DNA of 64,000 nucleotides from Candidatus Omnitrophota bacterium (GTDB lineage: Bacteria; Omnitrophota; Gorgyraeia; Zapsychrales; JANLHA01). Below the pieces are notes generated by a model that did not search any database, was not told where the DNA came from, and saw only the letters and a program-made list of their open reading frames with translations. The stretch lies in contig JAKLFA010000002.1 of the NCBI GenBank assembly GCA_022711395.1, positions 195,864-259,863 of the forward strand, in the 5' to 3' direction. Position 1 is the stretch's first letter, and each line of letters begins with the position of its first letter. Position numbers and translations under genes: made by a program. Positions 35,997 to 52,037 of this stretch are shown in pieces.

Positions 35997-36194
35997 TCAT
36001 ACAAGGTTTTTCTTCTCTTCCCCGTACGAGAGAAAAAACATTTTCGATAAGAGCTCAATGCCGGATTCAAAGGATTTTCGAGCGTCCGCTATCTCAAGTG
36101 CAGACAGACCCCGGGCTTTGAGCTTTGCTTCCAAAGCGTCCCAGCCCCGCGGCTCTGCCCTGACTTCGTTTAATATGCTCGATTCCTTTTCCAT
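35997..36194 (-). CDS. hypothetical small protein
   Basis: 65-aa ORF in the element, same strand as neighbours. Confidence 0.3.
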   Translation of the reverse strand: MEKESSILNEVRAEPRGWDALEAKLKARGLSALEIADARKSFESGIELLSKMFFLSYGEEKKNLV

Positions 36195-36235
36195 GTTCTC
36201 TTCCTGCTACGACTGACATACTGACATTCGGCGTG

Positions 36236-36547
36236 TCACTGAATGTCACTCAAATTCCCCTCATTCGTGCCTAAAACGCCCTGTTTTGAAGCGGAATCCG
36301 CCCCATTTGGCGCGTTTTCGCCATCCCACTGACACTGACACGAGTTTTTGAAATTGATATCACTGACAGACTGCGCCTCGGCTGACCCGCGCCAAAGCCC
36401 CTCCAGAAGGACCCACTGCTTAAAAGACGCCGGGGTCACATGCAGACGCGCGGTCACGCTCCGGCCATCGGGTGACGGAAAACGCACATACACCCAGAAG
36501 CCCGGCTTCCATTTCTTCTTCCTGTACTTAAAGCTGTACCATCCCAT
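36236..36547 (-). CDS. hypothetical protein
   Basis: 103-aa ORF with a basic N-terminus (KYRKKKWKPGFW). Confidence 0.3.
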   Translation of the reverse strand: MGWYSFKYRKKKWKPGFWVYVRFPSPDGRSVTARLHVTPASFKQWVLLEGLWRGSAEAQSVSDINFKNSCQCQWDGENAPNGADSASKQGVLGTNEGNLSDIQ

Positions 36548-36651
36548 GATTCACCTCGATTAAGAGATGGCGCGGAGCTGGGCGTGAAACCGCAGGAGGT
36601 TGCGAAAGACGCCCGGTACTTCATCGTTTGAACACTCCGCGCCAAATTGGT

Positions 36652-37290
36652 TCACTTTTTCACCTTGCGATGACGCTCAATCTTCGCCTCGAATTCCTTG
36701 TCCAGATCGAACTCGCGAAAGCGCAGGTGATAACTGTCCTTCTCAATTTCCTTTTCAAAACAAGTCGGATGCGTTAGCGCGCGCTCCGCCCGCTCCTTTT
36801 CAATCATAAAAATATGATTGGTTTGACTGTTAAACCGAAACAGTCTTCCGTCACTCATATAAGTGTCAGCAACGGCTCCGAGAAAAGACTGCGCGAACAC
36901 CAACAACCTCGCGTGCATGCGGGCAAATTCCTCGTCGCAAAACCTTCGTTCCGCGCATATTTCCTGATTCAATCTGTTTGCCTCTGTCTTTAACCCTTCC
37001 TTTTCTTCTTCAAGCGCCATCCGCAATTTATCTTTGAGCTTGTTGATGCTTTCAATGATCGCCTCATGATTAAGCGTGGCGTCTTCCATCCGCGCGTCCG
37101 CTTCTTTGATCTGATTTTCTCCTATCGGCTCTCCGCACAGTTTCTTCTGTCGCAGGCCTTTTGACACCGCGCGGAGCGCCTCTTTTTCTTTTGCCGCTTC
37201 TTCTTGCCTCGCTTCAAGAAGCACAATCTGCTCGGCAACCTCATCCGATGTGCTCTTGCGACTTAACACGTTCAAGAAATTGATCTTCAT
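36652..37290 (-). CDS. hypothetical coiled-coil protein
   Basis: 212 aa, heptad-rich (EARQEEAAKEKEALRAV...); no family recognised. Confidence 0.4.
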   Translation of the reverse strand: MKINFLNVLSRKSTSDEVAEQIVLLEARQEEAAKEKEALRAVSKGLRQKKLCGEPIGENQIKEADARMEDATLNHEAIIESINKLKDKLRMALEEEKEGLKTEANRLNQEICAERRFCDEEFARMHARLLVFAQSFLGAVADTYMSDGRLFRFNSQTNHIFMIEKERAERALTHPTCFEKEIEKDSYHLRFREFDLDKEFEAKIERHRKVKK

Positions 37291-37389
37291 TTTTCGTTCC
37301 TCCTGTTTTGTTAAATGATTTATCTTCTACCCATTGCCCTGCTTTTTTCGTCTACATCGCCTCACCTCCTGTTCCCTGAACGTTGTGAA

Positions 37390-37665
37390 CGTCGACTACC
37401 CTACTTTTTCTAAGCGCTCTTTATGTGCCTCTACGGAGCTTTTTCTCTCTCTTTTTCTTTCTTGGAAAAAGAAAGAAACGACATTCACAACATTCACAAA
37501 CCACATAACCTCTTGTGGATTATGCGGATAATCCGTGACCAGCGTTGTGAACGTAGCCCCTCGACAGTCACAATGGTCACGCCTTTTAATACGGCCTCGT
37601 GTCGTCTTCTTCACAGAATCCAGCCCCTTGTTCACGTTCGTTCACGCCTTCGTTCACACTGTTTT
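37390..37665. repeat. array of GTTCAC-type iterons (P4 ori/crr type-I-iteron-like TGTTCACC) overlapping the 3' end of the primase gene
   Basis: CGTTGTGAACGT occurs twice (37391 and 37543), ATTCACAACATTCACAA once, and TTGTTCACGTTCGTTCACGCCTTCGTTCACA (three GTTCAC in 32 bp at 37630-37662). Confidence 0.5.
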
Positions 37666-39961
37666 CAAAAAGCGAATTACCCTTCACCTTGCGTAAAATA
37701 ACCAGCTTCCTGCCTGTCCCGCCCTCCCGTTTTTCAGGCCGCAAAATATCGATGCCCACACTGCGCATGACCGGAGCGATACGCATAAGTTCTGAACCAA
37801 GCGCTCGGGCATTGCCGGGTATGGTCTTATCAAAACCCGTTTCCGGCTGAATGCACTCAAGAAGCGTGGTCGCTGATCCCTGCCACTCTCCTCCGTTTGA
37901 TTCCACAAGATAAACCAGCCGCTGGGCGAAGGTGCTCTCCTCGGCAGTGTCCTCCCATTTGTGATCAACGGATTGCTGATACCGCTTAAAGAACTCCTCC
38001 CGGGAAAAGCCTAAATACTCAGCCAGTGCCGCGCCCCACTGCGCGAAGTCCGACATCCGGAAACGCTCATGGCCGGACACGCCGTCAATAACCGCCATGG
38101 CATTTGAAATAGCCGAGAAGAATCCGCCGAGAATGCCGGGAAGCGAAGCCCGCCATTCATAAGCGATAACCTTCTCCGGACGGGTTTCTCTTAGGATTGG
38201 GATATCGAAGATAATCGAGCGGTCTAACAAGTCCGGGCGGCAAATAGAACTGCCGATCCCATTAAGAACAAAACACCGGCGATAAGTCCGGATGAACTCC
38301 TCATCATTGGTGTAAAGCGAACGCTTCATATCGCCTTCGCCAGTCACAGCCCGGCAGAGAAAATCGCTGAACCATTCGGACACCCGGGAAAGATTGTCAA
38401 AATTATTCACCCAGTGCTTGTCCGCGATCATCTGTGCCTGCTCCAAATCCTTGGGCACGGAAATGGACATCACCTTGGAAGGATCGCACAGACTTTTAAT
38501 GAGGCGTGAGTTATTAGATTTGCCTGTTCCCTGCTCGCCGATCTGCACCGGTATGACATGAGGAATATCGGGAATAAAGAACGTCGCGATAGCCATCATA
38601 AAAAGACAGGCATCGTTTTTATTGATATTGCAAAACTCCAAGAGCTTTTTGGGGTCAGAACCTTTGACCGGCAAAACCTGCTCTGCCTGATGCGAGTATC
38701 GCTTGAATATCGGCGGCAAGAAAACGACTTCCCAGCCGTCTTTGGTAATAACTATCCCCCGCCAGTCTTGGGTAGTGAGATCATAATAAATAGCCCCGTT
38801 ATGCCAGCCGACACGGTTATAAAGCTCGACCTGTCGCCCACTTTCGCACTTGGCTTCAATCTGGACTTTCGCTTGCTTTAAGGCTTCACTTCCCGGAGGA
38901 TGGCCAAAATCATGACGGTAGCGCATCGCGCAGTAATTCCTGAAACGGGAACTGCTGGTCTGGCAGACTTCAAGATGTTTATCAAACGGCAGAACAATAT
39001 ACGGATTCCCCTGCTGGTCGCGCAGATACTCGCTGATCGTCTCTTCGCAGTCGCGGGTAATGATCTCGCCTTGGGTGAGCTTCTTCTCTTTCGGGAATCC
39101 TGACGCTTCAAACACATTTTTGACATCTTTAACGGCCTTATCAATAACGCTTTGCCCATATGTCCTGCCATCACCGAAATGCTTCTCATCCCACTTTGGC
39201 CGCATGAGCCCGGACTGACGAAAAAGCAAATCCATCAGCCCGTCATCCTTTCCAGTCCAAAAGGCCAGCTTATTGCAAAGTGCCAAGTCAGCTTCTGATT
39301 GAGATGGATATGATTCCTGCCACCTGCCTTCATAAAGGGCGAAGAACGCCTCGCTGTCATTGCTCTTTTTTATCTTGCCAAGTATGCTTCGGACGCTCTT
39401 CTTTTCTTCCTCGGCCTGCTTCAATTCTTCAAACAGCTTCAAGAGCTCGTCTTCTCTTGCTTCGATCGTTCTTTTGCACCCCGGCACGATATCGCCTGTG
39501 ATCGTAAAGAACCTGCCTCCGGAATACATCTCAACACCAAGCTCGCTAAACTTGCGATCGTTGGGAAGCTCGCCTTTACAAAGGATATGAATACCGGTGC
39601 CGCTGGGAGAGAATTCGGTATAACTGTCCAGTACCGATATGATCTTTCGGGCATACGATGCGATAACGCCATTCATCACGCATCCGTCAATATCAATGCC
39701 GACGGTAGGCTTGGTTATTGCAAAGCCGATCGCGTCAAGGCCCAACGCTAAAGACCGGGCGATGACCTCACCAAGCGGCCGCCATGTTTTTGGATCATTG
39801 GACTTGGCATTGCCGCCGGTTGCGACATTGACCGGGACCTTTTTCGCCTTCTTGTCTTTTTGGGGGATGAATTTGAACCCAACGCCTATTGGCGGGCTCA
39901 TGATTTCCTGCGGGATATTCTTCTCTTCCCACCTCTTCACTTTTCTTCTCTCTTCGCTCAT
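37586..39961 (-). CDS. primase-helicase (prim-pol domain plus D5_N plus SF3 helicase; P4 alpha-like)
   Basis: 791 aa; archaeo-eukaryotic prim-pol motifs VGIDIDGC ... SPSGTGIHILCKG and SF3 Walker A GEQGTGKSN. The architecture is typical of phage/plasmid P4-family primases. Confidence 0.8.
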   Translation of the reverse strand: MSEERRKVKRWEEKNIPQEIMSPPIGVGFKFIPQKDKKAKKVPVNVATGGNAKSNDPKTWRPLGEVIARSLALGLDAIGFAITKPTVGIDIDGCVMNGVIASYARKIISVLDSYTEFSPSGTGIHILCKGELPNDRKFSELGVEMYSGGRFFTITGDIVPGCKRTIEAREDELLKLFEELKQAEEEKKSVRSILGKIKKSNDSEAFFALYEGRWQESYPSQSEADLALCNKLAFWTGKDDGLMDLLFRQSGLMRPKWDEKHFGDGRTYGQSVIDKAVKDVKNVFEASGFPKEKKLTQGEIITRDCEETISEYLRDQQGNPYIVLPFDKHLEVCQTSSSRFRNYCAMRYRHDFGHPPGSEALKQAKVQIEAKCESGRQVELYNRVGWHNGAIYYDLTTQDWRGIVITKDGWEVVFLPPIFKRYSHQAEQVLPVKGSDPKKLLEFCNINKNDACLFMMAIATFFIPDIPHVIPVQIGEQGTGKSNNSRLIKSLCDPSKVMSISVPKDLEQAQMIADKHWVNNFDNLSRVSEWFSDFLCRAVTGEGDMKRSLYTNDEEFIRTYRRCFVLNGIGSSICRPDLLDRSIIFDIPILRETRPEKVIAYEWRASLPGILGGFFSAISNAMAVIDGVSGHERFRMSDFAQWGAALAEYLGFSREEFFKRYQQSVDHKWEDTAEESTFAQRLVYLVESNGGEWQGSATTLLECIQPETGFDKTIPGNARALGSELMRIAPVMRSVGIDILRPEKREGGTGRKLVILRKVKGNSLFENSVNEGVNEREQGAGFCEEDDTRPY

Positions 39962-39963
39962 CT

Positions 39964-40194
39964 CTACACTCCGTTTTGAAATAAAAAGTCTTTAACCCTT
40001 CTGTAACACTGAAATAACTGCTCCTCTTGGGAGTTCCTGAAAAACTCATCCGCGAGCCTCTTTGTCTTTTCGCTGTCTTCAAAAAGCACCCGTTTCTGCC
40101 TGCCAAAGCCCGAGATGCCTTTCATGGCCAGCCCTTTTGACACAAGGTAAGCCGCCAGATAAATGTTACCCGCTTCAAAATACTGTTCTTCCAT
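39964..40194 (-). CDS. small phage-type protein (possibly DUF5659-like)
   Basis: 76 aa; YLAAYLVSKGLAMKGI...VLFEDSEKTKRLADEFF pattern reminiscent of small phage proteins; 2-nt gap to the primase. Confidence 0.35.
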   Translation of the reverse strand: MEEQYFEAGNIYLAAYLVSKGLAMKGISGFGRQKRVLFEDSEKTKRLADEFFRNSQEEQLFQCYRRVKDFLFQNGV

Positions 40195-40229
40195 CGTTAA
40201 CCCTCGTTTTCACTTCCCACAGTAGGTAT

Positions 40230-40720
40230 CACCTGTTTGCCTGTGAAATTTCGCATCTTTTTACTGCCCTCATATATGAACACGCAAAAAATTCGAAAGT
40301 GTAACACCCCTAAAGCATATATTCCGGTTTTTCCTGTAAAGTGTCGGATCATTACCCTCCCACAGGTGATTACAGGAAAATTCCGAAAGTGTCGAAGCCT
40401 TCAAGGCGTATATACAACTTTTTTTGCCAAACTGTCCCACCCCTAAGGCGTATATTCCGGATTTTTCCGGAAAGTGTCGGAACTTTCTTTCCCCTCATAG
40501 GTGATTACGCAAAATTTTCAAAAGTGTCGAAGCTTTTGGCCAACTTTTTTGCCCTCCCATAGGTGATTACAGGAAAATTCCGAAAGTGTCGGGGCTCTCT
40601 ACCATAGTTATTACGTTTTTAGGGTCAAAATTTCGCACCCTTACCGTAGTTATATGTATTCCGGGCCAAGATTTCGCACCCCTCAGCTATGAACACGCAC
40701 TATTTTTTAAAGTGTCGAAG
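40230..40720. repeat. dense non-coding iteron array (putative replication origin/operator region)
   Basis: Seven AAAGTGTCG(R) cores embedded in two alternating ~42-bp repeat types (CTAARGCRTATATTCCGGnTTTTyCnGnAAAGTGTCGGA and CCCAYAGGTGATTACrsrAAAwTTyCrAAAGTGTCGrrGC). Also TATGAACACGCA twice and ATTTCGCACCC three times. No ORF. Confidence 0.6.
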
Positions 40721-40721
40721 C

Positions 40722-40781
40722 CCAAAAATAAAAAAGCCACTTCCGGCCAATTGACTGGAAATGGCTTTTCCCGCACAGGCG
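40722..40781 (-). terminator. strong rho-independent terminator (minus strand)
   Basis: Minus-strand RNA AAAAGCCAUUUCC-loop-GGAAGUGGCUUUU (13-bp stem, one G-U) followed by UUUUUUAUUUUU. Confidence 0.65.
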
Positions 40782-40818
40782 GAACAGTGATCAGCTGTCC
40801 CGTAAGTCTATTTTTATT

Positions 40819-41030
40819 TTATAACAGCGCCAATCTTTCTCAAGATGGTCGTTACCAAAATATGGAATAAATCGCGCTTACGATTCCATCATATGACAAC
40901 GCCAATCTTTCTCAAGGGGGTCATTACTACAAAATAGCAAATCGCCCTCTCACGCTTTCATCATATAACAGCGCGAATCTTTCTCAAGGGGGTCTTTACT
41001 ACAGAATAGTAATAATTATTTGGGGTGTTT
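40819..41030. repeat. three tandem 72-bp direct repeats, non-coding
   Basis: Period of exactly 72 nt (AATCT anchors at 40832, 40904, 40976); unit is about TATRACArCGCsAATCTTTCTCAAGrkGGTCdTTACyACArAATAGnAA.... It lies between the PD-(D/E)xK gene stop and the terminator. Confidence 0.6.
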
Positions 41031-41142
41031 TGGAGGGCTAAAAACAAAAAATCGCCCAGGAGAGCGACAAATGAACTATTAAGTATTACTTACAAGTTGA
41101 ACTATTAGGAATTACCGAATAGTTCCCACATTCTCATCTATC

Positions 41143-42399
41143 CTATGCCTTTATTACCAGATCGATAAATGGCTTCAAAGATAAAAAGGCCTGTTCGAAT
41201 AGGTCAATGGCTTTAGGCGTATGAATCACTTTTGATTCCTGATATGGGATTTCGATGCCGATCTCAAACTGAATGTTTGACTTTTTGCCGGTCATTACCG
41301 TATATGTGGTCTCCAGCCATTCTGGTTGATATTTTTGAGATTTGCTATACCCATCGCGAATGACAGTGCGCAAATCATAACGCAACACAGCATCTTCGAT
41401 AGGAGGACTGCTTTGGCTGGGATAGTGCCGCTGGAGTACTTTCGCATAAGGCTGAACAGCTGGATCAATATGTATAACCTTATCGACTTCTCGTGCTATT
41501 GAAAATATCAATTCATTAAAAGAATCCTGCCCTTGTCCAAAAACTAATTTTCTGATTGATCGTTTAACTGCATTTGGCAAAGTAATCAGCGCAACTGCTT
41601 TATCAGCATGAATCACTACGGTTAAATGTGGATACTTCGTAAAATTTTGTGCATCCTTTGAAACCTTGAGCCGCATAAAATCCCATACGCTCCAGCCTCT
41701 ATACGCTTTTATTGCCCCTCGGCCGGGCAATGCGGGGTCAACCCCCAATTTATGGATGCTTTGTTTGCTTTTCAATTCATCCATGAGAAGCCCCAAAACT
41801 CTCTTGGCTTCCAGATAATTAAATTGATAATCCTTGCTAAACGGAATGCCAGCAAAGCGAGTTAGCGTTCCTTCTTTAAGATAAGCCTTTTGAACCATTT
41901 TTGCCTCCGCAACTTCCATATACGTCAAAATCTGCTTAGCCCAGTCAGAATGCGCAGACTGAACTGTTAGCCATTCATAGAGCCGATTCCATGGCAATCC
42001 CACGACATTTGTAGGCAAGCTCTTTAAATTATCTTCCGTAGCAAGCACCAATAACGTGCTATCAGGGAATCCGCGCCGACTTGCAATCTTAAGATGCCTA
42101 TCAAGCTGATGTAAATCAACCCGTGAAGCGACTTTGCTTTCAATCAGCAATGCCCATCCATCATCTGTAAAGATCCATGCATCTGGTAAACCGCGGTCGC
42201 CAACTTCAGCTTCATCTAACTCTATATCGCCCGGCAAAGTCTGCTCAACAATGTGCACTCTTGACGCCTTGCCGAGTCGCTTGCCAGTAACCCAAAGAAT
42301 AAACGCTTTTAGTAAACGTTGATCCTTGGTCAGACCAGAAACAAGTGCGTGAGTGAGCCGATTTTCTGGCTGTGAATATTGATCAAATATATGCCTCAT
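41143..42399 (-). CDS. PD-(D/E)xK nuclease-fold protein with unknown C-terminal domain (candidate defence effector)
   Basis: 418 aa; the N-terminal roughly 130 aa carry E...PDAWIFTDDGWALLIESKV (PD ... ExK); the remainder has no recognisable motif. Last gene of the hsdR-hsdMS operon. Confidence 0.55.
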   Translation of the reverse strand: MRHIFDQYSQPENRLTHALVSGLTKDQRLLKAFILWVTGKRLGKASRVHIVEQTLPGDIELDEAEVGDRGLPDAWIFTDDGWALLIESKVASRVDLHQLDRHLKIASRRGFPDSTLLVLATEDNLKSLPTNVVGLPWNRLYEWLTVQSAHSDWAKQILTYMEVAEAKMVQKAYLKEGTLTRFAGIPFSKDYQFNYLEAKRVLGLLMDELKSKQSIHKLGVDPALPGRGAIKAYRGWSVWDFMRLKVSKDAQNFTKYPHLTVVIHADKAVALITLPNAVKRSIRKLVFGQGQDSFNELIFSIAREVDKVIHIDPAVQPYAKVLQRHYPSQSSPPIEDAVLRYDLRTVIRDGYSKSQKYQPEWLETTYTVMTGKKSNIQFEIGIEIPYQESKVIHTPKAIDLFEQAFLSLKPFIDLVIKA

Positions 42400-42411
42400 T
42401 TGGAACCTGAT

Positions 42412-43125
42412 TTATTCTGTTTCTGCGACGTATGCTTCGTTGTATTTTTCTGCGATCTTGCGCAACAATCTTTTCTTTCCTTTTGCCTTCCCAAGGAATG
42501 ACTCAAAATCAAAAGCTGAACATGCTTTCAGATCTTGTTTCGAAAAATAATTCTTTCTCAATAGACAATCTTCAAAATGCTGATAGTCATAATCCTCTTC
42601 TTGCAATGCTCTCTCAAAAATAGACAACAATACAGTCGACATTCGTTGCTGAATTTCTTCGATATATGACAAGATTTCGTTAATTTTATCGTCGATCTGT
42701 TCTTGCGAATTCAAGTAGACATTACCATTAACGTGAGCACTATCATTGCGAAGCTTGATAATCTCTTTGTATTTGCCGATCCTATCCTGCAATCCGATGA
42801 GCCTTAAAAAACGAATGAATTGAGATTCACCAATAACCCAAAAGCCAAATGGATCGGACACTTTGGTCAGATCGGACTCATGTCGATCAATACAACCAAT
42901 CAAGCACTTTGAGAAATCTTCGTGCCGAACTGTTTTAATCTTCCAAACACAAAAATACGTAAAAAGCATAAACAGCATGTGATACGCAATGAACGCGAAC
43001 TGATATTTTCCGTTTTCATAATTACATTTAAATGAATCCCATAAAAAAAGAAGGTATTCTTGCTCTTTCTCGCTCCGAAAATAGCTTGGCAAATATTCTA
43101 AGATATGTTGGGCGTCATCGATCAC
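42412..43125 (-). CDS. HEPN-like (Rx4H) / DUF4145-like protein, candidate abortive-infection component
   Basis: 237 aa; KLRNDSAHVNG contains an R-x4-H motif as in HEPN/DUF4145 proteins often linked to Type I RM loci. Hydrophobic stretch FAFIAYHMLFMLFTYFCVW; start overlaps the hsdMS stop (ATGA). Confidence 0.5.
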   Translation of the reverse strand: MIDDAQHILEYLPSYFRSEKEQEYLLFLWDSFKCNYENGKYQFAFIAYHMLFMLFTYFCVWKIKTVRHEDFSKCLIGCIDRHESDLTKVSDPFGFWVIGESQFIRFLRLIGLQDRIGKYKEIIKLRNDSAHVNGNVYLNSQEQIDDKINEILSYIEEIQQRMSTVLLSIFERALQEEDYDYQHFEDCLLRKNYFSKQDLKACSAFDFESFLGKAKGKKRLLRKIAEKYNEAYVAETE

Positions 43126-45623
43126 TTTTCACCCCAAATCTTAGAAATACGCTCACAAATTTTTGTTGAATATATGTCTATAATTCTTCGATTCGAATTA
43201 ACAAGCTGTTCCGTTTCATCTAAAAAAGTCACTACTTTTTTTTGCGTATCAATATCGGGAAGTAAAAACTTTAGCTTATAAGCGTCATTACGATTGAGAC
43301 CAGGTACACCAGCTTGAGTATTAACCTTATCGAGCCGCATTGATAGCATTTGATAATAAGCGAATTTCAGATCTAAAGAATCTATCTTGTTGATTTTGAC
43401 ATAAAAAGTGGTATCAATTGGGTATCCTGATTTTTCTGAGTATGTAACAGCACCCGCTGTTCCTTTTCTCCCCACTACAACAAAAGGCCCATCCACTAAA
43501 TATTCATTATGCCAGCCGACTATGCCATTAGACCCAAAAACGGGATATTCACCAGCGATTCTATTTTCCTCTTTAAGTGGCTTCCCGTATTCCAAAGACA
43601 GAACATCTCCTAATTCTACAACTGGCCATTCGGGATCAGAGTCAATACGCGGATTATAATTATCAGTAACCTGACGAGCCCCCGCAACAATCTTTTGATA
43701 ACTACTTAATTCTTCAACTATTTCTTCCTGTACAGTCATCGACGGGAGTGGGATTTTGATTTCTTTGACCTCTAGGCTAATACCTCCGATAATTCCTTTA
43801 ATATACGGCTTCAATTTTTGTTGGAAATCATCCGACCTGATGATTGCATAAAGATATTCCGGAAGGATATTCTGCCGAGCCCTTAATATAAAAACATGTT
43901 CATTTACAGCGGCGGCTTCGTTGCAGTCAAAATATCCAGTCTTTCCAGTTGTTGCGCCATCTTTGACAATTAGAACATCTCCTTTTTTTAGAATACCTTT
44001 CTTCATCGATTGGAAATGTTCATTAGTGACATATTTCATTTTTTCAAACAGGATATCACCATGTTCATTTATCTGCTCGCCCCCGATGCTCGGAATGCCC
44101 GACGAAACCGCGCCTCCTTTTTGTCGTGATCCGCTTTCTATATCAACAACATCTCCTAATTCAACCATCGGCCACTTAACGTTAACATGAGTTTCCTTTA
44201 ACCCATATCGTTCGCCACTCAAGTTGTATGTGCCGCCTTTTGCGATCTTGCTTTTTTCAATTACCTTTATTTTTTGCCATGCGTCATCTTTAAATTTGCC
44301 TTCTGAAATAACGGCCTTCTTGTATTCCATGATTGCGCGATATGCATCCGGCAAGTCATTTTCTTGTATCGGACGCCTCTGCGCGCCAAGATCAAAGCCA
44401 TCGTTTTCGATCTTCACGAATAAAAGATTATCCGTTTTCTTAACAAGCTGTTTGTCGAGCCACAATATGGACGTCTTAACGCCAGAGTATGGATTAAAAA
44501 GTCCAGCTGGAAGAGAGATAACTCCAACCAGATACTCTTCAACAAGCATTTTTCTAAGCTGCCTATAGGCTGTATCGTTTTGAAATATTATTCCTTCTGG
44601 AACAATGATTGCGGCACGCCCCATTGAAGTAAGATGCTCAGCCATATAATCCACAAAAAGCACCTCTGAGCGCTTGGATTGGACAGAAAAACGCTTATGT
44701 GGTTTTATCCCACCTTTAGGCGACATGAATGGAGGGTTTGCGAGAATGACCTCTGCTTTTTCATCCCATTTGTCGTCTCGCGTTAATGTGTCATACTCAT
44801 AAATTTTTGGGTTGCTAAAACCATGGAGATACATATTCACCAAAGACAATCTAACCATATCCGGAGAAATGTCATATCCTGAAATATTATCAACAAGCCG
44901 TTTGCGATCGTCAGAGGTTAATTTTTCCCCACGGTATCCTTTGCCATTAATCGTGATCTCCGAAAGCTTGATATTTTGAAGCTCAAATGGCTTTGGATCA
45001 TTCTTAGGATCATAGTTCTTCGAGTTATGCTTAATAATATATTTGTATGCGGATATCAAAAACCCGCCCGTTCCGCATGCTGGATCCAATATCTTTTCGT
45101 TCTTTTTGGGCTCCAGAATCTCTACCATAAAATCAATGATATTTCGCGGCGTTCTGAATTGCCCGGCCTCGCCTTGACTTCCTAATATCGAAAGCAAATA
45201 TTCAAAAGCATCGCCAAGACGCTCAGAGTGATCGTATTCAAACTCATTAATTTCTTTTAGAAAACTTTTAAGCGTTTCTGGGTCCCGATATGGCAAATAC
45301 GCGTTCTTAAAGATATCCCTAAATAACTGCGGGACATTGGGGTTTTGATTCATATTCTGTATTGCTTCGCCATACAGATTTACAATGTCATAGCCGCTTT
45401 TTTGAGGTGAAAAAACGTTACGCCACGAATAATCTTTAAATTTATCGGTAAAGAATTTTGCCTTACCGCGAGGCAATAGCTCTGCCTGCCTGTCCATGTC
45501 ATCCATAAACTTATAAATTAGGGCAATTGTAATTTGCTCAACTTGAGATTTAGGATCAGGCAATTTACCGACTAAAATGTCTCGCGCAGTATTTATTCGC
45601 CTTTTTGTAATGTCATCTAGCAT
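43122..45623 (-). CDS. hsdMS: Type I restriction-modification HsdM-HsdS fusion (N6-adenine methyltransferase plus two target-recognition domains)
   Basis: 833 aa; methylase motif I LDPACGTGGFL and motif IV NPPF; C-terminal half has two TRD-like repeats (WPMVELGDVVDIESG... and WPVVELGDVLSLEYG...). Confidence 0.8.
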   Translation of the reverse strand: MLDDITKRRINTARDILVGKLPDPKSQVEQITIALIYKFMDDMDRQAELLPRGKAKFFTDKFKDYSWRNVFSPQKSGYDIVNLYGEAIQNMNQNPNVPQLFRDIFKNAYLPYRDPETLKSFLKEINEFEYDHSERLGDAFEYLLSILGSQGEAGQFRTPRNIIDFMVEILEPKKNEKILDPACGTGGFLISAYKYIIKHNSKNYDPKNDPKPFELQNIKLSEITINGKGYRGEKLTSDDRKRLVDNISGYDISPDMVRLSLVNMYLHGFSNPKIYEYDTLTRDDKWDEKAEVILANPPFMSPKGGIKPHKRFSVQSKRSEVLFVDYMAEHLTSMGRAAIIVPEGIIFQNDTAYRQLRKMLVEEYLVGVISLPAGLFNPYSGVKTSILWLDKQLVKKTDNLLFVKIENDGFDLGAQRRPIQENDLPDAYRAIMEYKKAVISEGKFKDDAWQKIKVIEKSKIAKGGTYNLSGERYGLKETHVNVKWPMVELGDVVDIESGSRQKGGAVSSGIPSIGGEQINEHGDILFEKMKYVTNEHFQSMKKGILKKGDVLIVKDGATTGKTGYFDCNEAAAVNEHVFILRARQNILPEYLYAIIRSDDFQQKLKPYIKGIIGGISLEVKEIKIPLPSMTVQEEIVEELSSYQKIVAGARQVTDNYNPRIDSDPEWPVVELGDVLSLEYGKPLKEENRIAGEYPVFGSNGIVGWHNEYLVDGPFVVVGRKGTAGAVTYSEKSGYPIDTTFYVKINKIDSLDLKFAYYQMLSMRLDKVNTQAGVPGLNRNDAYKLKFLLPDIDTQKKVVTFLDETEQLVNSNRRIIDIYSTKICERISKIWGEK

Positions 45624-45637
45624 GATAATCCCCTCTT

Positions 45638-48160
45638 TTAAATAAACGTGTTTAATGGCACGTAATCTTTGACGTATTCAATAACCGGATCCATCCACCC
45701 GTCTAAATCATGCAAATCTTGCATGTTAAAACGCGGATTCGTGGCAAGTGAACTGAATTCACCTGTCTCCATTATCTGCTGGATTTCCTTATCCAAAATA
45801 TATGCCTTCATGAAATGCCCGATAATTGATACAAACTCCGGCTCCGGGTGATATATGGAAATAAATTTCTGAACTTCTTCTTCAAGGAGCTCGTCTTTAG
45901 TCTTAAATTTTTTGATTTTGCCAAAAATCTTTTCAAGGATTTCTTTCAGGCTCAATCTGCGGTCGAGTTTGATAGATTTTCTCAGTTTATCCAGATTGAA
46001 ATAATCCTCGGGCTTATCAAAAACTTTGTCTTTGATATACGCCTCGGCTTCTTCGTACTTTCCCTCATAAATCTTATTCTTAATGTGCTCATCATGGCTT
46101 ACGATTTCCTCGAACTTCTCGAAGAACTTTCTGTCAATTCGCATCCCTTCATAGCCTATGGGCGTCTCATCGATCCCAACAAGCGGATCAGGATTCACGT
46201 TTTCATACTCTCTCGGATTGGGTGGCGGAAAAGGCCCGGGCCCCGTAGTTCCGGGAGTTGTGGGCGGTAACGCAATAACCTCGTCATAGGGATATTTTTC
46301 TTCAAAATATTCACAGTTCGCAAAGAAATCAAACAGCTTAAATCGCTCTTTTTCTTTTTGAACTTCGTCTATGCCCCCGATACCATCTGGCTGTTTATAA
46401 GAAAACGTGTATTTTCGGGTTCCTCGACCTTTCATTTGAATAAAATCGGTGGGCGAGAAAATAGGGCGCATTAAACACAAATTGAGGATATCTTGACAAT
46501 CATATCCTGTGGTCATCATTCCAACCGTTACACACACCCGCGTCTTTGATGAATTATACCCATCCAAGAATTTCGAATTACCGCTAAGGCGGTTATTGGC
46601 GAAATTGATGGCCATTTGTTGAGAACCATCGATATTTGATGTAACCTGTACCGCAAAATCAGAGTTATATTTTTCGGGGAAATATTTATGTGCAAGCTCA
46701 TTTAAAATTTGCGTAATCTTTGAAGCGTGATTTTGGCTTACACAGAAACAAATCGATTTTCCTATTTCATTTGTAAGGGGATCCTTGAGAGCATTGTCCA
46801 AGAATGTCTTACACAGGGACAAATTTGTTTCTTCCGAAAACAGCCTTCGTTCGAAATCTTTTCCGAAAAAGATCTTCTTTTCAGACTCCCCGTCCTCGTT
46901 CTCTATTAATACAGCGTACCCTTCTTCAGAAAGCAACTGGGTTGTAATTTCTGTTCTTGCATCAACCACGATGGGATTGATTAAGTACCCGTCTTTCACT
47001 CCATCTAAAAGGGTATAACGAAAAGTGGGATCGGTATCTTTACATCCGAAAGTCGTATACGTATCTAAGAGCTGGCGCCTTTCCAGCGCCCTTGGGTCAT
47101 GGTGCGCCAGCTGTTGCTCATCAACGTTTCGCAAATAGTTTTTCGGTGTTGCCGTTAATCCTAATTTATAGCCCGTAAAATATTCGAAAACTGCCCGGCT
47201 ATTCCCACCTATTGACCTATGAGCCTCATCAGATATGACAAGATCAAAGTCTGTTGGGCAAAATAAATCCTTGTATTTATTTTTAAATAACAATGACTGA
47301 ACCGTCGAAACTACAATCTCCGCTTTTGTCCAATCATCCTTGTTCTCTTTAAAAATGACACATTTAAAGTCTTTCTTGAGGTAGGCTACAAAATTCTTCC
47401 ATGCTTGATCTTCCAGCTCGAGGCGATCAACCAAAAACAACACCCTTTTTGCGTTACTTGTTCTTAAAAACAACTTAATCACGGCCGCCGAAACAAGCGT
47501 TTTTCCTGTCCCAGTAGCCATCTCAAATAAAAATCTGTCTTTCCCTTGAGAAACCGCTTCTTGTATCGAATGTATAGCCTTTAACTGGTACTTTCTCAAA
47601 AAACGAAGACCGTTATCTTCAACAAAAGATTTTCTTTGGCTGGGATCGACCCACCGTGGATCTTTTGAATAATTCTGGTTTTGAGTTAAAACTATATAAT
47701 CCTCATCAATCTGTTCTCGAACGATTGCGTCGGGATTAGGCTTAAAAGATTTCTTATGCGTTATAGAGGCCGCTGTAGGGAATGTTGTTATAACATACGG
47801 ATTGCCCGATTCTATGTCCCAGAAGTAATGAAGATTTCCATTTGAAAGAATAATAAAACGAACATTTAAAGAATTGGCATACTGCCGAGCTTGCTCTTTA
47901 CCATCCAAAGGATTTTTGCTTTCACTCTTAGCTTCAAGCACACAAAGAGGAAAAGAATTTTTATCCATCAAAAGATAATCAGCGTACCCTTTGCTGGCTT
48001 TTTCAAAGTCCTCCCCCAGCTCATTAATGGCGATTTCCGTGATTGGCGTATTTACCTCCAGCCGAATGTTTGCTTTACCATTCTGATCGTCAAAAAAACG
48101 CCAACCGGAATCTTCTAGTAACTTATTGATCTTGATTCGTGCTTTAGCTTCTTTCGCCAT
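45638..48160 (-). CDS. hsdR: Type I restriction enzyme R subunit (HsdR family, short EcoEI-like form)
   Basis: 840 aa; N-terminal PD-(D/E)xK nuclease (D...CVLEAKSE), SF2 helicase motif I MATGTGKT and motif II ISDEAH, C-terminal helical domain. Confidence 0.8.
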   Translation of the reverse strand: MAKEAKARIKINKLLEDSGWRFFDDQNGKANIRLEVNTPITEIAINELGEDFEKASKGYADYLLMDKNSFPLCVLEAKSESKNPLDGKEQARQYANSLNVRFIILSNGNLHYFWDIESGNPYVITTFPTAASITHKKSFKPNPDAIVREQIDEDYIVLTQNQNYSKDPRWVDPSQRKSFVEDNGLRFLRKYQLKAIHSIQEAVSQGKDRFLFEMATGTGKTLVSAAVIKLFLRTSNAKRVLFLVDRLELEDQAWKNFVAYLKKDFKCVIFKENKDDWTKAEIVVSTVQSLLFKNKYKDLFCPTDFDLVISDEAHRSIGGNSRAVFEYFTGYKLGLTATPKNYLRNVDEQQLAHHDPRALERRQLLDTYTTFGCKDTDPTFRYTLLDGVKDGYLINPIVVDARTEITTQLLSEEGYAVLIENEDGESEKKIFFGKDFERRLFSEETNLSLCKTFLDNALKDPLTNEIGKSICFCVSQNHASKITQILNELAHKYFPEKYNSDFAVQVTSNIDGSQQMAINFANNRLSGNSKFLDGYNSSKTRVCVTVGMMTTGYDCQDILNLCLMRPIFSPTDFIQMKGRGTRKYTFSYKQPDGIGGIDEVQKEKERFKLFDFFANCEYFEEKYPYDEVIALPPTTPGTTGPGPFPPPNPREYENVNPDPLVGIDETPIGYEGMRIDRKFFEKFEEIVSHDEHIKNKIYEGKYEEAEAYIKDKVFDKPEDYFNLDKLRKSIKLDRRLSLKEILEKIFGKIKKFKTKDELLEEEVQKFISIYHPEPEFVSIIGHFMKAYILDKEIQQIMETGEFSSLATNPRFNMQDLHDLDGWMDPVIEYVKDYVPLNTFI

Positions 48161-48177
48161 AGTGCTTCCTTGAAATT

Positions 48178-48885
48178 TTATTTGTTTAAAATCCCTATGT
48201 AATCCTCAAAACTATAATAATTACTGCCGCCAACTATTATGTGATCCAGTAGCCTTACTTGCATGGTCTTGCCAGCTTCGAACAATTGTTTTGTGAAGTC
48301 CTTATCAGGTGTGCTTGGTGTTGTGTCGCCAGATGGATGGTTATGAACGCAGACAATCGACTTGGCGAATTTCTGTAATGCGGCATGAATGATCTCCCGG
48401 ACAATCGGGAACGCCTGATCAACAGTACCGACCGAAGCGTCTGAAATATCAATGATGCGGTTCTTGTTATCAAGATAAATAACCTTGAACACCTCTGTTT
48501 TAAGGTCGCGGAGCTGGGGCAAAACAATATCCACAACGTCCTTGGCAGAGGCGATCTTCTGCTTCCCGGTGGACACATCGTCCTGTCGATAGCGCCGCCC
48601 GATTTCAAGCGCGGCCTGAATATGGGCGATCTTGGCCCCGCCCAAACCCTTGAATTCCTTCCAGTCGCGGGCGTCGGTGTGGGCCATACTCCTGAATGAA
48701 CCGAACTTTGCGAGGATCTTGCGGGAAAGGTCGATGGCGCTTGTGCCTTTGGAGCCAGTGCGAAGCAGAATGGCTAGAAGCTCTGAATTACTCAAAGCTC
48801 CCGCGCCCTTCTTGAGGAGTTTCTCTCTCGGCCTGTCATCCTCCGGCCAAGTCTTTATGCCTGTAGCTTTTCTTTCCTTCACCAT
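48178..48885 (-). CDS. radC: RadC-like JAB-domain protein
   Basis: 235 aa; LSNSELLAILLRTG HhH N-terminus and JAMM-like HNHPSGDTTPSTPD motif. Confidence 0.8.
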   Translation of the reverse strand: MVKERKATGIKTWPEDDRPREKLLKKGAGALSNSELLAILLRTGSKGTSAIDLSRKILAKFGSFRSMAHTDARDWKEFKGLGGAKIAHIQAALEIGRRYRQDDVSTGKQKIASAKDVVDIVLPQLRDLKTEVFKVIYLDNKNRIIDISDASVGTVDQAFPIVREIIHAALQKFAKSIVCVHNHPSGDTTPSTPDKDFTKQLFEAGKTMQVRLLDHIIVGGSNYYSFEDYIGILNK

Positions 48886-48912
48886 TCTTCTCTTCTCTGT
48901 TCTTCACTATTT

Positions 48913-48964
48913 CTGCAACCAGTGGTTGCAGATTTTGAGCCAATTCTTGCACCAATGGTGCAAG
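48913..48964. promoter_or_regulatory. pair of 8-3-8 inverted repeats upstream of radC (candidate operator); a third exact copy at 50152-50172
   Basis: CTGCAACC-agt-GGTTGCAG (48913-48931) and CTTGCACC-aat-GGTGCAAG (48946-48964). The 21-mer TTCTTGCACCAATGGTGCAAG recurs exactly inside the DUF1016 CDS. Confidence 0.45.
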
Positions 48965-48977
48965 AAACACATTACTT

Positions 48978-49433
48978 CTAAGGGCGCTTATTATCGCGTT
49001 TATTATCACGTTTACCTGACTTGTTATCAGGTTTGGACGCTTGCCCTGTCTTATACTCCAACATTTCAAGCATGATCTTCCGGCGTTTCCGATCAGGCAC
49101 CAGATTTGAATGCTCTCCAAGATGCCGATACTGCCGACCGGTACGGCCATGGCTTCCACCGATGTTATAGATACTGCACCAAACGCTCCCATCGCAACTT
49201 GATAAGGTGCATTCTTTAAATATGGGGCAATGACGCGTTTCATATCGCCTTACAGCGTCCAAAAGCGCAGGGGTCGATAGCGGAATATTCGTCCTCGTGG
49301 AAGCATCGCGCATTGCCAAAGCAATCTCGTGATCGTATTCAGGGCACGTTAAGATAGTCTGCGCCGCTTCAGGCATGCCGACCTTTTTGAAAAATTTCGC
49401 TATGAGATTCTGATGTTTAATCGTGTATTCCAT
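48978..49433 (-). CDS. hypothetical protein (Cys-containing; basic Lys/Arg-rich C-terminal tail)
   Basis: 151-aa ORF; no family recognised. Confidence 0.35.
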   Translation of the reverse strand: MEYTIKHQNLIAKFFKKVGMPEAAQTILTCPEYDHEIALAMRDASTRTNIPLSTPALLDAVRRYETRHCPIFKECTLSSCDGSVWCSIYNIGGSHGRTGRQYRHLGEHSNLVPDRKRRKIMLEMLEYKTGQASKPDNKSGKRDNKRDNKRP

Positions 49434-49446
49434 ATAACCTGCTGAA

Positions 49447-50469
49447 TCATATTTGATCTACCAATTCCTGAATCTGTTCCGGTGACGGTAATTGTTTCTT
49501 TAATTCTTTAGGCAATTTCGTTGTTATTTTATATTGCGCTACCGCGATCGGCTTGTTGCTTTCTTTTAGCGCGTATTCCACAATCGTCCGTTTCTTCTCC
49601 TTGCAAACGATAATCCCTATGGATGGATTTTCATATTTTTCTTTCATCTCGGCATCCAAGGCGGCAAGATAAAATTGCATCTTGCCAACATACTCCGGTT
49701 TAAACTCGCCGATCTTAAGCTCTATAGCCACCAGACAGCGTAATCTGCGATGATATAGCAGTATGTCGATAAAATATTCATTGCCCTCAATCTCAAGCCG
49801 GTACTGATTGCCCATGAAGGCAAACGCGCCACCCATTTCGATAAGGAAACGATTAACCTTAGCGACAATCGCGCGTTCAAGCTCCAACTCGCTATGCTCC
49901 TCTCCTAATTCGAGAAAGCCAAAAGAATACTCGTCTTTAACAGCCAGTTTTGCCTGCTTTTCTATCTTGGCCGGTAGGGTTTTGCCAAAATTAGTCTGGT
50001 TAACCATCGTTTTTTCGTACGTCTTATTTTCAACCTGATGGACAAGCACCTCTTTTGTCCAACCCATGCGTTTTGTCATGCGAATATAAAATTCACGCTC
50101 AAGGTCATCCTTACACTTCTCCATAACAACAATATTATGTGACCAGCTAATTTCTTGCACCAATGGTGCAAGTTTTGTGCTTTTCTCATAGCGAAGATAA
50201 AATTTACGCATTCTCCAGAGATTATCCTTTGAATATCCGGATACTCCCGGGAATTCCTTCTGTAAATCCTGCGCAAGGTTTTCAACCACAGATTTTCCCC
50301 AATTATGTCTCCCTTGCCTATCAACAATCTTTTTCCCGAGATCCCAATAAAGGCTTATAAGTACGCTGTTAACATTTTTCAAAGCATCATACTGAGCGGA
50401 TCTAATCCGCTCTTTAACTTCTCGCAAGAAATCCGAGTAATGTTTGTTATGAACCAAGCTCTGTGTCAT
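49447..50469 (-). CDS. YhcG-like PDDEXK nuclease (DUF1016 family)
   Basis: About 340 aa from MTQSLVHNKHYSDFLREVKERIRSAQYDALKNVN...LYWDLGKKI, which matches the DUF1016/YhcG N-terminal pattern. C-terminal restriction-endonuclease-like fold (IDILLYH...LVAIELKIGEFKPEYVGKMQFY). Confidence 0.7.
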   Translation of the reverse strand: MTQSLVHNKHYSDFLREVKERIRSAQYDALKNVNSVLISLYWDLGKKIVDRQGRHNWGKSVVENLAQDLQKEFPGVSGYSKDNLWRMRKFYLRYEKSTKLAPLVQEISWSHNIVVMEKCKDDLEREFYIRMTKRMGWTKEVLVHQVENKTYEKTMVNQTNFGKTLPAKIEKQAKLAVKDEYSFGFLELGEEHSELELERAIVAKVNRFLIEMGGAFAFMGNQYRLEIEGNEYFIDILLYHRRLRCLVAIELKIGEFKPEYVGKMQFYLAALDAEMKEKYENPSIGIIVCKEKKRTIVEYALKESNKPIAVAQYKITTKLPKELKKQLPSPEQIQELVDQI

Positions 50470-50485
50470 CTTTCTCCTCCAAAAT

Positions 50486-50671
50486 CTATTTTTTGGCCTT
50501 TGAGCGCTTCGTCTTGTATTCCTCAATCAACTCGCGCATGATCGCCGCGATGGAGGCTTCCTTGTCCTGCTTTTGACGCTCAAGAGCCTCCTGCTTTAAA
50601 AAGAAATAAAGGTCGTCCGGAATATCCAGCGTCGTCCGGTGCATTTTTTCATTGTTTCTCGTTACTCGCAT
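50486..50671 (-). CDS. ribbon-helix-helix (CopG/antitoxin-like) small DNA-binding protein
   Basis: 61 aa; TTLDIPDDLYFFLKQEA beta-strand/helix pattern of RHH proteins. Confidence 0.45.
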   Translation of the reverse strand: MRVTRNNEKMHRTTLDIPDDLYFFLKQEALERQKQDKEASIAAIMRELIEEYKTKRSKAKK

Positions 50672-50684
50672 GGTATTAACCTCG

Positions 50685-51431
50685 CTATTTAATGACTTTC
50701 CAGTTATTGAGGAAATATGTTACCTCGTGTTCCCGCCTGCCGAGATAGAGCTTATCAGCGACGAACTTCAAGGTCATACGATATGAATTCCCCTTGTTGA
50801 TCTCAAGAATCGCCCTCTCGTGCAGTTTCTGCTCTAAGACAAGATATGGGAATATCACAAAATCGGTTTTACTCTCGTCACGCAAAACACAGACGTAAAA
50901 AATATTGCTTGAATTAAACCGCTCAAACGATGTTCGTCGCACATCAAAAACGTAGGTATTATAACTATTGAGATTAGCGGTTTTAACCTGAATCTCAAAA
51001 CGTTTGTTATCCTTTATCGCCACGATATCAATGCCGGTATCCACGCTCATGATGCTGGCATTAAAACCCCTGAACAGAAGCTCACTGCAGACACGGAATT
51101 CTCCGCCTTTGCCGATAAAACCCGTCTCGACGGAATAGGTGTCCCCCTGCGCGGGAAGCGGAGCCGATTTTACTGGCACAGGTTCTTTATAATCCGGATT
51201 GATCGAAAAAGTGGCAGGCGATACTCTTTTGAATATTGACTTATCCCCGTAACGCTTTATATCCACAACGATTTGAGCGTTCATGGTCGCTTCGGGTGTC
51301 GCGCCTTGCGTCTCAAATAATCCTTCCTCTAACGCCTTGCGGGTGATCTCCCGATAATGAAGCGGTTCCTTGAACTTCTTGAGGATAGTAATCGCGGCCT
51401 GCTTAAAGGTATTCATGCCATATCCTTTCAA
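50685..51431 (-). CDS. HARE-HTH (Mrr-N-like winged helix) plus PD-(D/E)xK restriction-endonuclease-like protein
   Basis: 248 aa; N-terminal FKQAAITILKKFKEPLHYREITRKALEEGL... winged HTH; C-terminal GIDIVAIKDNKRFEIQVKT (D ... ExK). Confidence 0.55.
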   Translation of the reverse strand: MKGYGMNTFKQAAITILKKFKEPLHYREITRKALEEGLFETQGATPEATMNAQIVVDIKRYGDKSIFKRVSPATFSINPDYKEPVPVKSAPLPAQGDTYSVETGFIGKGGEFRVCSELLFRGFNASIMSVDTGIDIVAIKDNKRFEIQVKTANLNSYNTYVFDVRRTSFERFNSSNIFYVCVLRDESKTDFVIFPYLVLEQKLHERAILEINKGNSYRMTLKFVADKLYLGRREHEVTYFLNNWKVIK

Positions 51432-51517
51432 TTGGCTTTAATTATGGCATTATAGCATTTTAAGTTTTGAAAGGAAATGATTTTTTACGCTGATGCGGGT
51501 TTTGTTTTAAGGCGGGA

Positions 51518-51790
51518 TTAGAGGACGGATTCTTGAATCTTGCCGGTCGTGGCATCCACGATTCGGAAATGGGTCTTGCCGGTGCGGTCTTTCCACTGCT
51601 CTTCGATATTTAGGGTCCAGTCACCCAGAGGCATGACTTTCTGGATCTCCCGCAGGCGAAGCTTACCGGCCGGGACCGCACTCAAGAGATCGCCCTCGGT
51701 TGAGATGTTTTCCACATAAACTTCCTCACCAGCCAGCCGGACGCTGATATAGCGGGTTTTCTTAACCGATTGCTCGATAACTTTTGCCAT
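51518..51790 (-). CDS. hypothetical protein
   Basis: 90-aa ORF, first gene downstream of the palindrome-containing intergenic region. Confidence 0.35.
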   Translation of the reverse strand: MAKVIEQSVKKTRYISVRLAGEEVYVENISTEGDLLSAVPAGKLRLREIQKVMPLGDWTLNIEEQWKDRTGKTHFRIVDATTGKIQESVL

Positions 51791-51994
51791 ACGCCTGCCT
51801 CCCTTTTGGGGTCAAGTAGGCCATAGGGTCGAGCTATTGGCAAGGAATTTAATTGGGGTTGCAAGCCTAACCCCCTCATGTCAATAATATGTCACAACCT
51901 GATTTATTACAGATAGTTAGAAAGAATTTGGGAAGGCTGTTTTGTCAGAAATAATATATACTTTTTGTGACAAGATTAAATGTCTACTGGATGG

Positions 51995-52037
51995 AAATGT
52001 CCACTATTTAGTGGACATTTTGAAAAAGTGGACATTT
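51995..52037. promoter_or_regulatory. 26-bp perfect palindrome plus third half-site (candidate operator)
   Basis: AAATGTCCACTA-TT-TAGTGGACATTT (12-2-12, 51995-52020), then AAAAGTGGACATTT at 52024-52037. Lies in a 360-bp AT-rich intergenic region that also has a GGGGTT...AACCCC hairpin and TTGTCA/TGACAA elements. Confidence 0.45.

Follow-up and report, generated by a model that had tools for sequence, protein, structure and literature searches.

Type I restriction–modification (R-M) systems in which HsdM (M) is fused to an HsdS (S) carrying one or two target recognition domains (TRDs), with HsdR (R) kept as a separate protein, are known as Type IMS (Roberts et al. 2012, PMC3510504). Such an arrangement is encoded on the minus strand of the 64,000-nt stretch of Candidatus Omnitrophota DNA analysed here (hereafter, the window), where a pair of open reading frames (ORFs) fills positions 43122-48160, with R first and the gene for a two-TRD M-S fusion (M~S, or MS) 14 nt downstream. 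While comparing this locus with the closest described systems, this report gives an assessment of its proteins, its relatives and its surroundings, and argues, with a probability of roughly 80 %, that it is a functional, ATP-dependent, Type I-like R-M system of the Type IMS kind, most likely with two M~S chains per complex.

The Type IMS form of EcoKI also has a separate R and a single polypeptide in which M is followed by a two-TRD S, and this engineered fusion, together with R, restricts and modifies in vivo (PMC3510504); hence, the M-S architecture is viable. However, the EcoKI fusion is artificial, a Type IA system having been altered by the insertion of a single base, and free M had to be added in vitro (PMC3510504), whereas the window locus is natural, belongs to an ancient clade with its own EcoAI-like R and has no free M gene. 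A natural HsdM-S1/2 fusion is represented by 7EEW, a crystal structure of M~S1/2 that is entered as 'intact MTase from Vibrio vulnificus YJ016' (MTase, methyltransferase) and in which, according to PMC12429846 (citing Seo et al. 2022), two copies recapitulate M2S1. The V. vulnificus YJ016 system resembles the window locus in being a natural M-S fusion, in having a TRD (that of 7EEW) that aligns to the second TRD (TRD2) of the window protein and in supplying the nearest R structure, 3H1T. It differs in having a single TRD, such that the homodimer restores 2M:2TRD (PMC12429846), and it is distant, scoring 115-125 bits as opposed to ~1000 bits within the window's own family.

For R, the nearest described enzymes are those of Type IB, as the best NCBIfam match of the window R is the EcoAI/FtnUII-type R profile (NF046051; 245 bits), which aligns R aa 12-584 with profile positions 12-515 of 768 and is of similar length. 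Nonetheless, the score lies below the equivalog cut-off of 550, the C-terminal 250 aa of R are unmatched, and hsdM and hsdS of EcoAI are separate genes. M-S fusion has been suggested as a link between the IA/IC and IB families (PMC3510504), with which an R that appears, by sequence comparison, nearest to Type IB would be at least compatible. The single-chain Type IIB/IIG enzymes AloI, CjeI and TstI likewise carry M followed by a two-TRD S and present the same 1M:2TRD puzzle (PMC3874165), and the PADLOC profile REase_MTase_IIG (1271 positions) matches MS with 177 bits. In those enzymes, however, the nuclease is on the same chain, there is no ATP motor and cuts are made at fixed positions, whereas the nuclease of the window locus resides on a separate superfamily 2 (SF2) translocase, which places the locus outside Type IIB/IIG. 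The Type ISP enzymes LlaGI and LlaBIII share with the window locus a nuclease, SF2 motor, gamma-class MTase and TRD in a 1:1 ratio, but they unite all of these in one polypeptide that has only one TRD, and their asymmetric site is continuous; with two polypeptides and two TRDs, the window locus is not a Type ISP enzyme. The 'HsdMS' of the Pseudomonas/Zymomonas literature was considered as a further M-S fusion and rejected, since the term there means two separate genes or a fusion of the R N-terminus with M. In the literature, with REBASE lying outside that search, no published natural two-TRD M~S family was found.

The first-pass annotation of the window had proposed a Type I system made up of an 833-aa ORF combining an N6-adenine methylase with S and, 14 nt away, an 840-aa HsdR with PD-(D/E)xK and DEAH motifs. 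Both ORFs lie where it had placed them, and domain searches, conserved motifs and the conserved synteny of R and MS bear out the core of that description, i.e. a Type I-like R-M system with M and S as one polypeptide and R apart. The features of the gene pair are as follows.

45638..48160, minus strand: hsdR-like gene (840 aa), encoding an N-terminal PD-(D/E)xK nuclease, an SF2 translocase motor and a family-specific C-terminal region (Pfam, NCBIfam, PADLOC and PDB matches; synteny)
47801..47998, minus strand: R nuclease core, aa 55-120, with D61 and E76-A-K78 (HSDR_N_2, HSDR_N)
46415..47599, minus strand: R SF2 motor, aa 188-582, with Walker A MATGTGKT, DEAH, TATP and QxxGRGTR (ResIII; sub-threshold Helicase_C)
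45641..46360, minus strand: R C-terminal region, aa 601-840, family-specific (~45-47% column identity within the family)
45624..45637, minus strand: R-MS spacer, 14 nt, with a GAGGGG ribosome-binding site (Shine-Dalgarno)
43122..45623, minus strand: hsdM~hsdS fusion gene (MS, 833 aa; domain searches, alignment, independent assemblies)
45225..45623, minus strand: M N-terminal helical domain, aa 1-133, the most conserved part of MS (PADLOC MTase_I coverage; identity 0.72)
44202..45224, minus strand: gamma-class N6-adenine MTase catalytic domain, aa 134-474, with motif I LDPACGTGGFL and motif IV NPPF (N6_Mtase, E 4e-50; identity 0.70)
44181..44225, minus strand: flexible M-S linker, aa 467-481 (AlphaFold predicted local distance difference test score, pLDDT, <50; conservation 0.37)
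43749..44177, minus strand: first TRD (TRD1), aa 483-625, hypervariable (Methylase_S, Specificity_I; identity 0.21)
43629..43748, minus strand: central conserved region (CR1), helix aa 629-654 (identity 0.65; model helix)
43254..43628, minus strand: TRD2, aa 666-790, hypervariable (Methylase_S; aligns to the 7EEW TRD)
43125..43253, minus strand: distal conserved region (CR2), helix aa 791-830, ending in the family motif WGE (identity, model)

The M-S fusion is genuine and not an assembly artefact, since the very same 833-aa ORF is recovered from at least three independent assemblies and has more than 8000 matches among database proteins, those listed being fused. In detail, the ORF is found unbroken and with the same neighbours in five contigs, including a JGI metagenome contig of 516 kb as well as two ENA assemblies, and, among the matches listed, all 120 MS homologues have N6_Mtase together with Methylase_S, most being 790-880 aa long. 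Neither the R nor the MS ORF contains a stop codon, and the stop or frameshift at the M/S junction that would have undone the first-pass annotation was looked for and is absent.

As regards the domains of MS, Pfam assigns N6_Mtase to aa 134-474 and finds two Methylase_S stretches (E 4e-28), and PADLOC gives MTase_I at 318 bits along with many Specificity_I matches over both TRDs. Motif I (LDPACGTGGFL, aa 179-189) and motif IV (NPPF, aa 296-299) are intact, nearly all of their residues being invariant in an alignment of 32 sequences. The M part is a gamma-class N6-adenine MTase, and all of its PDB matches are HsdM subunits; the hsdM profile TIGR00497 scores 68 bits, below its cut-off of 243. 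The N-terminus of MS is an HsdM-type helical domain, for which neither Pfam nor PADLOC returns a nuclease match. The remainder is an S with two TRDs and two conserved helical regions, as indicated by the two Methylase_S stretches, the identities of the TRDs and CRs, and the modelled helices. The 'two TRD-like repeats' described earlier are indeed two TRDs, but they are not sequence repeats of each other, as only a ~20-aa entry motif, 'WP(M/V)VELGDV', can be aligned between TRD1 and TRD2. In an AlphaFold model of M~S built from 32 sequences (mean pLDDT 76.6, predicted template modelling score, pTM, 0.52), the domains are well folded, with a 26-residue CR1 helix (629-654), a 40-residue CR2 helix (791-830) and a disordered linker at 467-481. 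A fold search gave 7EEW as the best match (E 6e-29), its 638-aa chain aligning to the M domain plus TRD2 of MS; other top-listed matches are HsdM and HsdS subunits, the PacII M1M2S complex, BpuSI and CamA.

The R protein combines a PD-(D/E)xK nuclease with an SF2 (DEAD/DEAH) translocase, as does a classical R. Pfam reports HSDR_N_2, HSDR_N and ResIII (E 7e-38), with Helicase_C sub-threshold at 20.8 bits against a cut-off of 23.5, and the best PDB match is 3H1T, a V. vulnificus HsdR fragment. Across 63 full-length homologues, D61, E76, A77 and K78 are 100% conserved, and MATGTGKT, DEAH, TATP and QxxGRGTR, together with the nuclease residues, are 94-100% conserved. The NCBIfam hsdR equivalog cut-off is not reached. 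Beyond aa 584, where the match to the EcoAI-type R profile ends, aa 601-840 have no Pfam or NCBIfam match, and these C-terminal ~240 residues are probably a docking domain for M~S. The emphasis formerly placed on a 'short' HsdR is unwarranted, since 840 aa is not unusual, the EcoAI-type R profile itself having 768 positions.

The locus has many relatives. A scan of one genome per species gave at least 582 confirmed stretches of the family, in Proteobacteria, Bacteroidota, Chloroflexota, Verrucomicrobiota, Patescibacteria, Nitrospirota and Planctomycetota as well as one archaeal metagenome-assembled genome (Methanoperedens). Cultured carriers include Thiobacillus denitrificans RG, Propionivibrio soli SG131, Roseovarius lutimaris DSM 28463 and, on its plasmid pPZ02, Paracoccus zhejiangensis J6. 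Eighty related loci were fetched, 75 of which had enough upstream DNA; the other five had <450 nt upstream and no R match. In all 75, an R homologue (52-72% identity) lies upstream of M~S on the same strand, that of L038 being a fragment only, and R is the only invariant partner of M~S across the related loci. The architecture that had been called uncommon is so for characterized enzymes only, the fused family being abundant in databases. Likewise, the suggestion of a distinct subfamily does not hold as a claim of novelty, given that these proteins are already present in databases and that the architecture already bears the name Type IMS (PMC3510504).

The gap between R and MS is at most 153 nt in 46 of the 75 loci. 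In the other 29 (L004-L079), the intergenic slot is occupied by a variable gene, and the slot behaves as a cargo hotspot. Its contents include GxxExxY/four-helix-bundle proteins, an AbiEii-like nucleotidyltransferase, a PIN toxin plus antitoxin, a HEPN protein, YhcG, ORF6N/KilA-N-like proteins and an IS200-like transposase.

The family is under purifying selection throughout, with TRDs that diversify. In a 75-member set chosen by M-region patterns, mean pairwise identity is 0.72 for the M N-terminal domain, 0.70 for the MTase domain, 0.65 for CR1 and 0.51 for CR2, but 0.21 for TRD1 and 0.22 for TRD2, a pattern that reads as the classical Type I one of a constant machine with two swappable specificity modules. 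A top-hit alignment had suggested a conserved TRD1 beside a variable TRD2, i.e. a fixed half-site or pseudo-TRD; this was rejected, both TRDs being equally variable, and the apparent conservation of TRD1 arose because hits are ranked by total score.

Two TRDs are present in 267 of 340 sampled family members. Exchange of TRDs was gauged by direct counts of cross-position matches between trimmed TRD cores (≥50% identity over ≥90 aa), which replaced a single-linkage clustering of TRD halves that had yielded one giant cluster via the conserved flanks. By these counts, a position-2 counterpart in another protein exists for 166 of 267 position-1 TRDs, and a position-1 counterpart elsewhere for 153 of 267 position-2 TRDs; the TRD2 type of the window occurs at position 1 in 14 relatives. 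TRD types are also common to single-TRD proteins. This exchange, both between positions and with single-TRD proteins, argues that the two positions are equivalent, M-served half-sites. Four proteins of 940-1052 aa (P0140, P0144, P0214 and P0237) have a charged, probably helical insertion of 100-200 aa between the MTase domain and TRD1, which would form an extended tether.

The single-TRD relatives came into view when the M region alone (aa 1-480) was searched against 1.8 billion cluster representatives, a search that returned 894 matches below 1e-30. Among the best 150 of these 894, about half are 780-900 aa and about a quarter are 590-700 aa, whereas sixteen exceed 900 aa and a dozen are short fragments, as tallied by hand. 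Seven proteins of ~650 aa, inspected by eye, are complete, consisting of M, one TRD and one CR helix, and ending in WGE. The one-TRD forms, of which a few of the 29 examined are truncated genes, are scattered among the two-TRD forms, the nearest M neighbour being a two-TRD protein in 27 of the 29. For complete, hand-checked proteins, M identity between one-TRD and two-TRD forms reaches 87%.

One of these relatives (L081) is carried by the Escherichia coli IncF plasmid pVE769 (NZ_AP018353.1, 79619-87167), where an R of 849 aa accompanies an M~S of 677 aa. Its R is 58% identical to the window R over the full length and its M region 53% identical, and it thus belongs to the same family, differing by its single TRD and by a 951-aa TrlF-family AAA-like ATPase encoded directly after M~S. 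The locus has finO on one side and the replication region on the other; 78 of the 5426 complete E. coli genomes carry it, in every case on a plasmid. The NCBI pipeline PGAP annotates it as 'DEAD/DEAH box helicase family protein' plus 'N-6 DNA methylase', without an R-M label. No published function was found for this R + M~S + TrlF locus, and a search by the TrlF name gave, among the papers listed, unrelated ones only.

Judged by homology, the M~S of the window would read a bipartite, asymmetric site through its two variable TRDs, with the CR1 and CR2 helices as spacers, and would produce N6-methyladenine by means of the fused gamma-class MTase domain. R would dock onto M~S and, on unmethylated sites, would use its SF2 motor for translocation of DNA and its N-terminal PD-(D/E)xK nuclease for cleavage. 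It had been stated earlier that the fusion fixes M:S stoichiometry. It does set M:S at 1:1, but this conflicts with the canonical M2S1; one chain offers 1 M per 2 TRDs in place of 2M:1S, and so the fusion raises a stoichiometry question. In the most likely assembly, two M~S chains would form each recognition complex, the second donating its M while its own S is idle or on a second site. The single-TRD forms of the same M clade must act as (M~half-S)2 dimers. The two-chain assembly is favoured because near-identical M serves those one-TRD dimers and because TRD types move between positions. That one M on a flexible linker serves both half-sites in turn is less likely than two chains.

A source of free M was sought in several ways. 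M and S form one ORF, in contrast to a classical Type I enzyme with its three distinct subunits assembling into M2S1 and R2M2S1, and there is no other M or S gene in the window; a second hsdM in cis is likewise absent within 10 kb on either side in the 80 related loci, and this candidate was rejected. So was programmed frameshifting or transcriptional slippage, as slippery heptamers are not enriched at the M/S junction (2.3 vs 3.8 per 1000 codons), nor are A/T runs, only 11 of 75 genes having any. Internal initiation of a separate S was rejected as well, an in-frame start with a Shine-Dalgarno-like sequence at the junction being found in only four of 75 genes.

Several points weigh against a functional system built on two M~S chains. 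In the literature, measured activity, a methylation motif or stoichiometry was found for no family member. The purified EcoKI fusion required added free M in vitro (PMC3510504), and hence an (M~S)2 assembly may not work. The NCBIfam equivalog cut-offs for hsdM, EcoAI-type R and hsdR are not reached, the locus is known from metagenome sequence, and the inter-domain arrangement of the M~S model is, at a pTM of 0.52, unreliable. It is conceivable, albeit unlikely, that natural two-TRD M~S proteins do not assemble as M2S1 at all, with M instead alternating between half-sites on a flexible, ~40-residue tether, or with an R1(M~S)1 particle that methylates one strand only and needs two converging complexes to cut. 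If true, this would amount to a different Type I stoichiometry and would offer an accessible system in which to study the 1(R)M:2TRD problem posed by AloI, CjeI and TstI, with isogenic one-TRD/two-TRD relatives, one of them on E. coli F plasmids, available for comparison. A 'split Type ISP' or Type III-like enzyme would follow related lines, in that one R and one M~S would make up a monomeric complex, its single M would methylate one half-site and strand only, translocation would run in one direction, and cutting would occur on the collision of two converging complexes. The gene dosage of 1 R : 1 M : 2 TRD, without an extra M in the window or the 80 loci, speaks for such an enzyme, as do the flexible M-S linker, the failure to find a recoding signal or internal start for free M, and the 1RM:2TRD ratio of the related AloI and CjeI, which has been termed a 'mystery' (PMC3874165). 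Yet, TRD1 and TRD2 are equally hypervariable, and TRD types are shared among position 1, position 2 and the single-TRD proteins, in the last of which they are necessarily served by M. Moreover, M domains up to 87% identical serve the dimeric single-TRD forms, and Type ISP enzymes carry one TRD. Therefore, an enzyme of this sort is judged unlikely.

A second M might also come from cleavage of some M~S at the disordered linker, giving a core of M plus M~S that is equivalent to M2S1. To explain why the EcoKI MSFusion needed free M in vitro and not in vivo, proteolysis or stalled translation was proposed (PMC3510504), and the linker at aa 467-481 is both disordered and poorly conserved. However, no conserved feature that would point to cleavage or recoding was seen at the junction, the process would waste S moieties, and free M was not clearly detected even for the EcoKI fusion (PMC3510504), making this route very unlikely. 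The chance that the fusion arose through faulty sequencing or assembly, or that the two genes are decaying pseudogenes, is close to nil; a one-base indel can join adjacent hsdM and hsdS, as in the EcoKI engineering (PMC3510504), but neither the recurrence of the ORF across assemblies and homologues described above nor two stop-free ORFs with intact, conserved M and R catalytic motifs fits with it. Equally negligible is a methylation-linked defence system other than R-M, of the MADS or BREX kind. Although the best NCBIfam match of MS is MADS MAD2 (100 bits), with MAD5 also matching (35 bits) and PADLOC mad2 at 132 bits, the first two scores are far under their cut-offs of 720 and 400, the PADLOC MTase_I score is higher, and further MADS or BREX genes are neither found next to the locus nor seen as conserved companions in the related loci, the invariant partner being the nuclease-helicase R only. 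The Type I-like reading with two M~S chains thus stays the preferred one.

The window locus is an ordinary member of a very large, widespread and poorly annotated family that is already in databases, its architecture having been named and a half-S relative solved. Its importance lies in the family. The R + M~S module is labelled by PGAP merely with the helicase and methylase names given above for the E. coli plasmid, and rule-based finders of R-M or defence systems that expect three genes may miss it, a separate S gene being absent. Counts of R-M barriers are, therefore, probably too low for many genomes, E. coli F plasmids included. In addition, the family includes one-TRD and two-TRD forms that are close relatives with M and R in common, and these constitute a natural experiment on the Type I core at 1M:2TRD, a ratio that, as 1RM:2TRD in AloI/CjeI, is listed as unresolved in the main Type I review (PMC3874165).

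The gene pair is part of a same-strand block that runs from a RadC gene through a 17-nt gap to R, then, after the 14-nt spacer, to M~S, which is followed with a 4-nt overlap by a HEPN-like gene and, 12 nt further on, by a gene for a 418-aa protein, after which there is a terminator-like hairpin at 41051-41068. The neighbouring genes are as follows.

42412..43125, minus strand: HEPN-like accessory gene, 237 aa, with a GTG start overlapping the MS stop by 4 nt
41143..42399, minus strand: gene for a 418-aa protein (some homologues named 'PD-(D/E)XK nuclease family protein')
48178-48885, minus strand: RadC/JAB protein, 17 nt upstream of R; recurs beside the module in a few related loci
49447-50526, minus strand: YhcG/DUF1016 PDDEXK nuclease, farther upstream (PADLOC candidate PDC-S02, 486 bits)
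50685-51431, minus strand: HARE-HTH protein, farther upstream

In the HEPN-like protein, R126 and H131 (RNxxAH, the HEPN Rx4H motif) are invariant among 17 homologues, nine of which give weak HEPN_RiboL-PSP matches. Full-length homologues of this 237-aa gene lie downstream of MS, usually immediately, in 17 of the 80 related loci, and the gene is a probable operon partner that is optional in the family; it may serve as a back-up RNase in the manner of PrrC/RloC. The 418-aa protein has no Pfam, NCBIfam or PADLOC match but at least 1000 database homologues of ~420 aa, of which a few bear the nuclease name listed above, and its N-terminal PDAW...LLIESK looks like a nuclease core. Homologues of its gene are absent from the other 80 R-M~S loci, which makes it independent cargo.

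The R and MS genes lie within a low-GC stretch (0.39-0.42 vs ~0.50), with a recombinase and a primase-polymerase on one side of the block and the YhcG nuclease and HARE-HTH protein on the other. RadC, YhcG and HARE-HTH proteins are typical neighbours in defence islands. The co-occurrence of low GC, recombinase, primase-polymerase, YhcG and HARE-HTH makes it probable that ~34000-52000 is an integrated mobile element carrying defence cargo, and the window locus is one more cargo defence operon on such an element. The ORF of the large serine recombinase (34071-35777) shares ~120 nt with a MiaB-like radical-SAM gene (32788-34191), and the primase-polymerase (37586-39961) is NrS-1-like. Over 40-52 kb, GC falls to 0.39-0.46, and the GC skew switches sign at ~34 kb. 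Immediately beyond the operon terminator, there is a 72-bp tandem repeat (40820-41009; 2.7 copies, 81% matches), each copy of which contains a promoter-like TTGAGA-16-TATGAT on the minus strand, and, near it, a 41-bp repeat occurs in two copies at 40600-40681.

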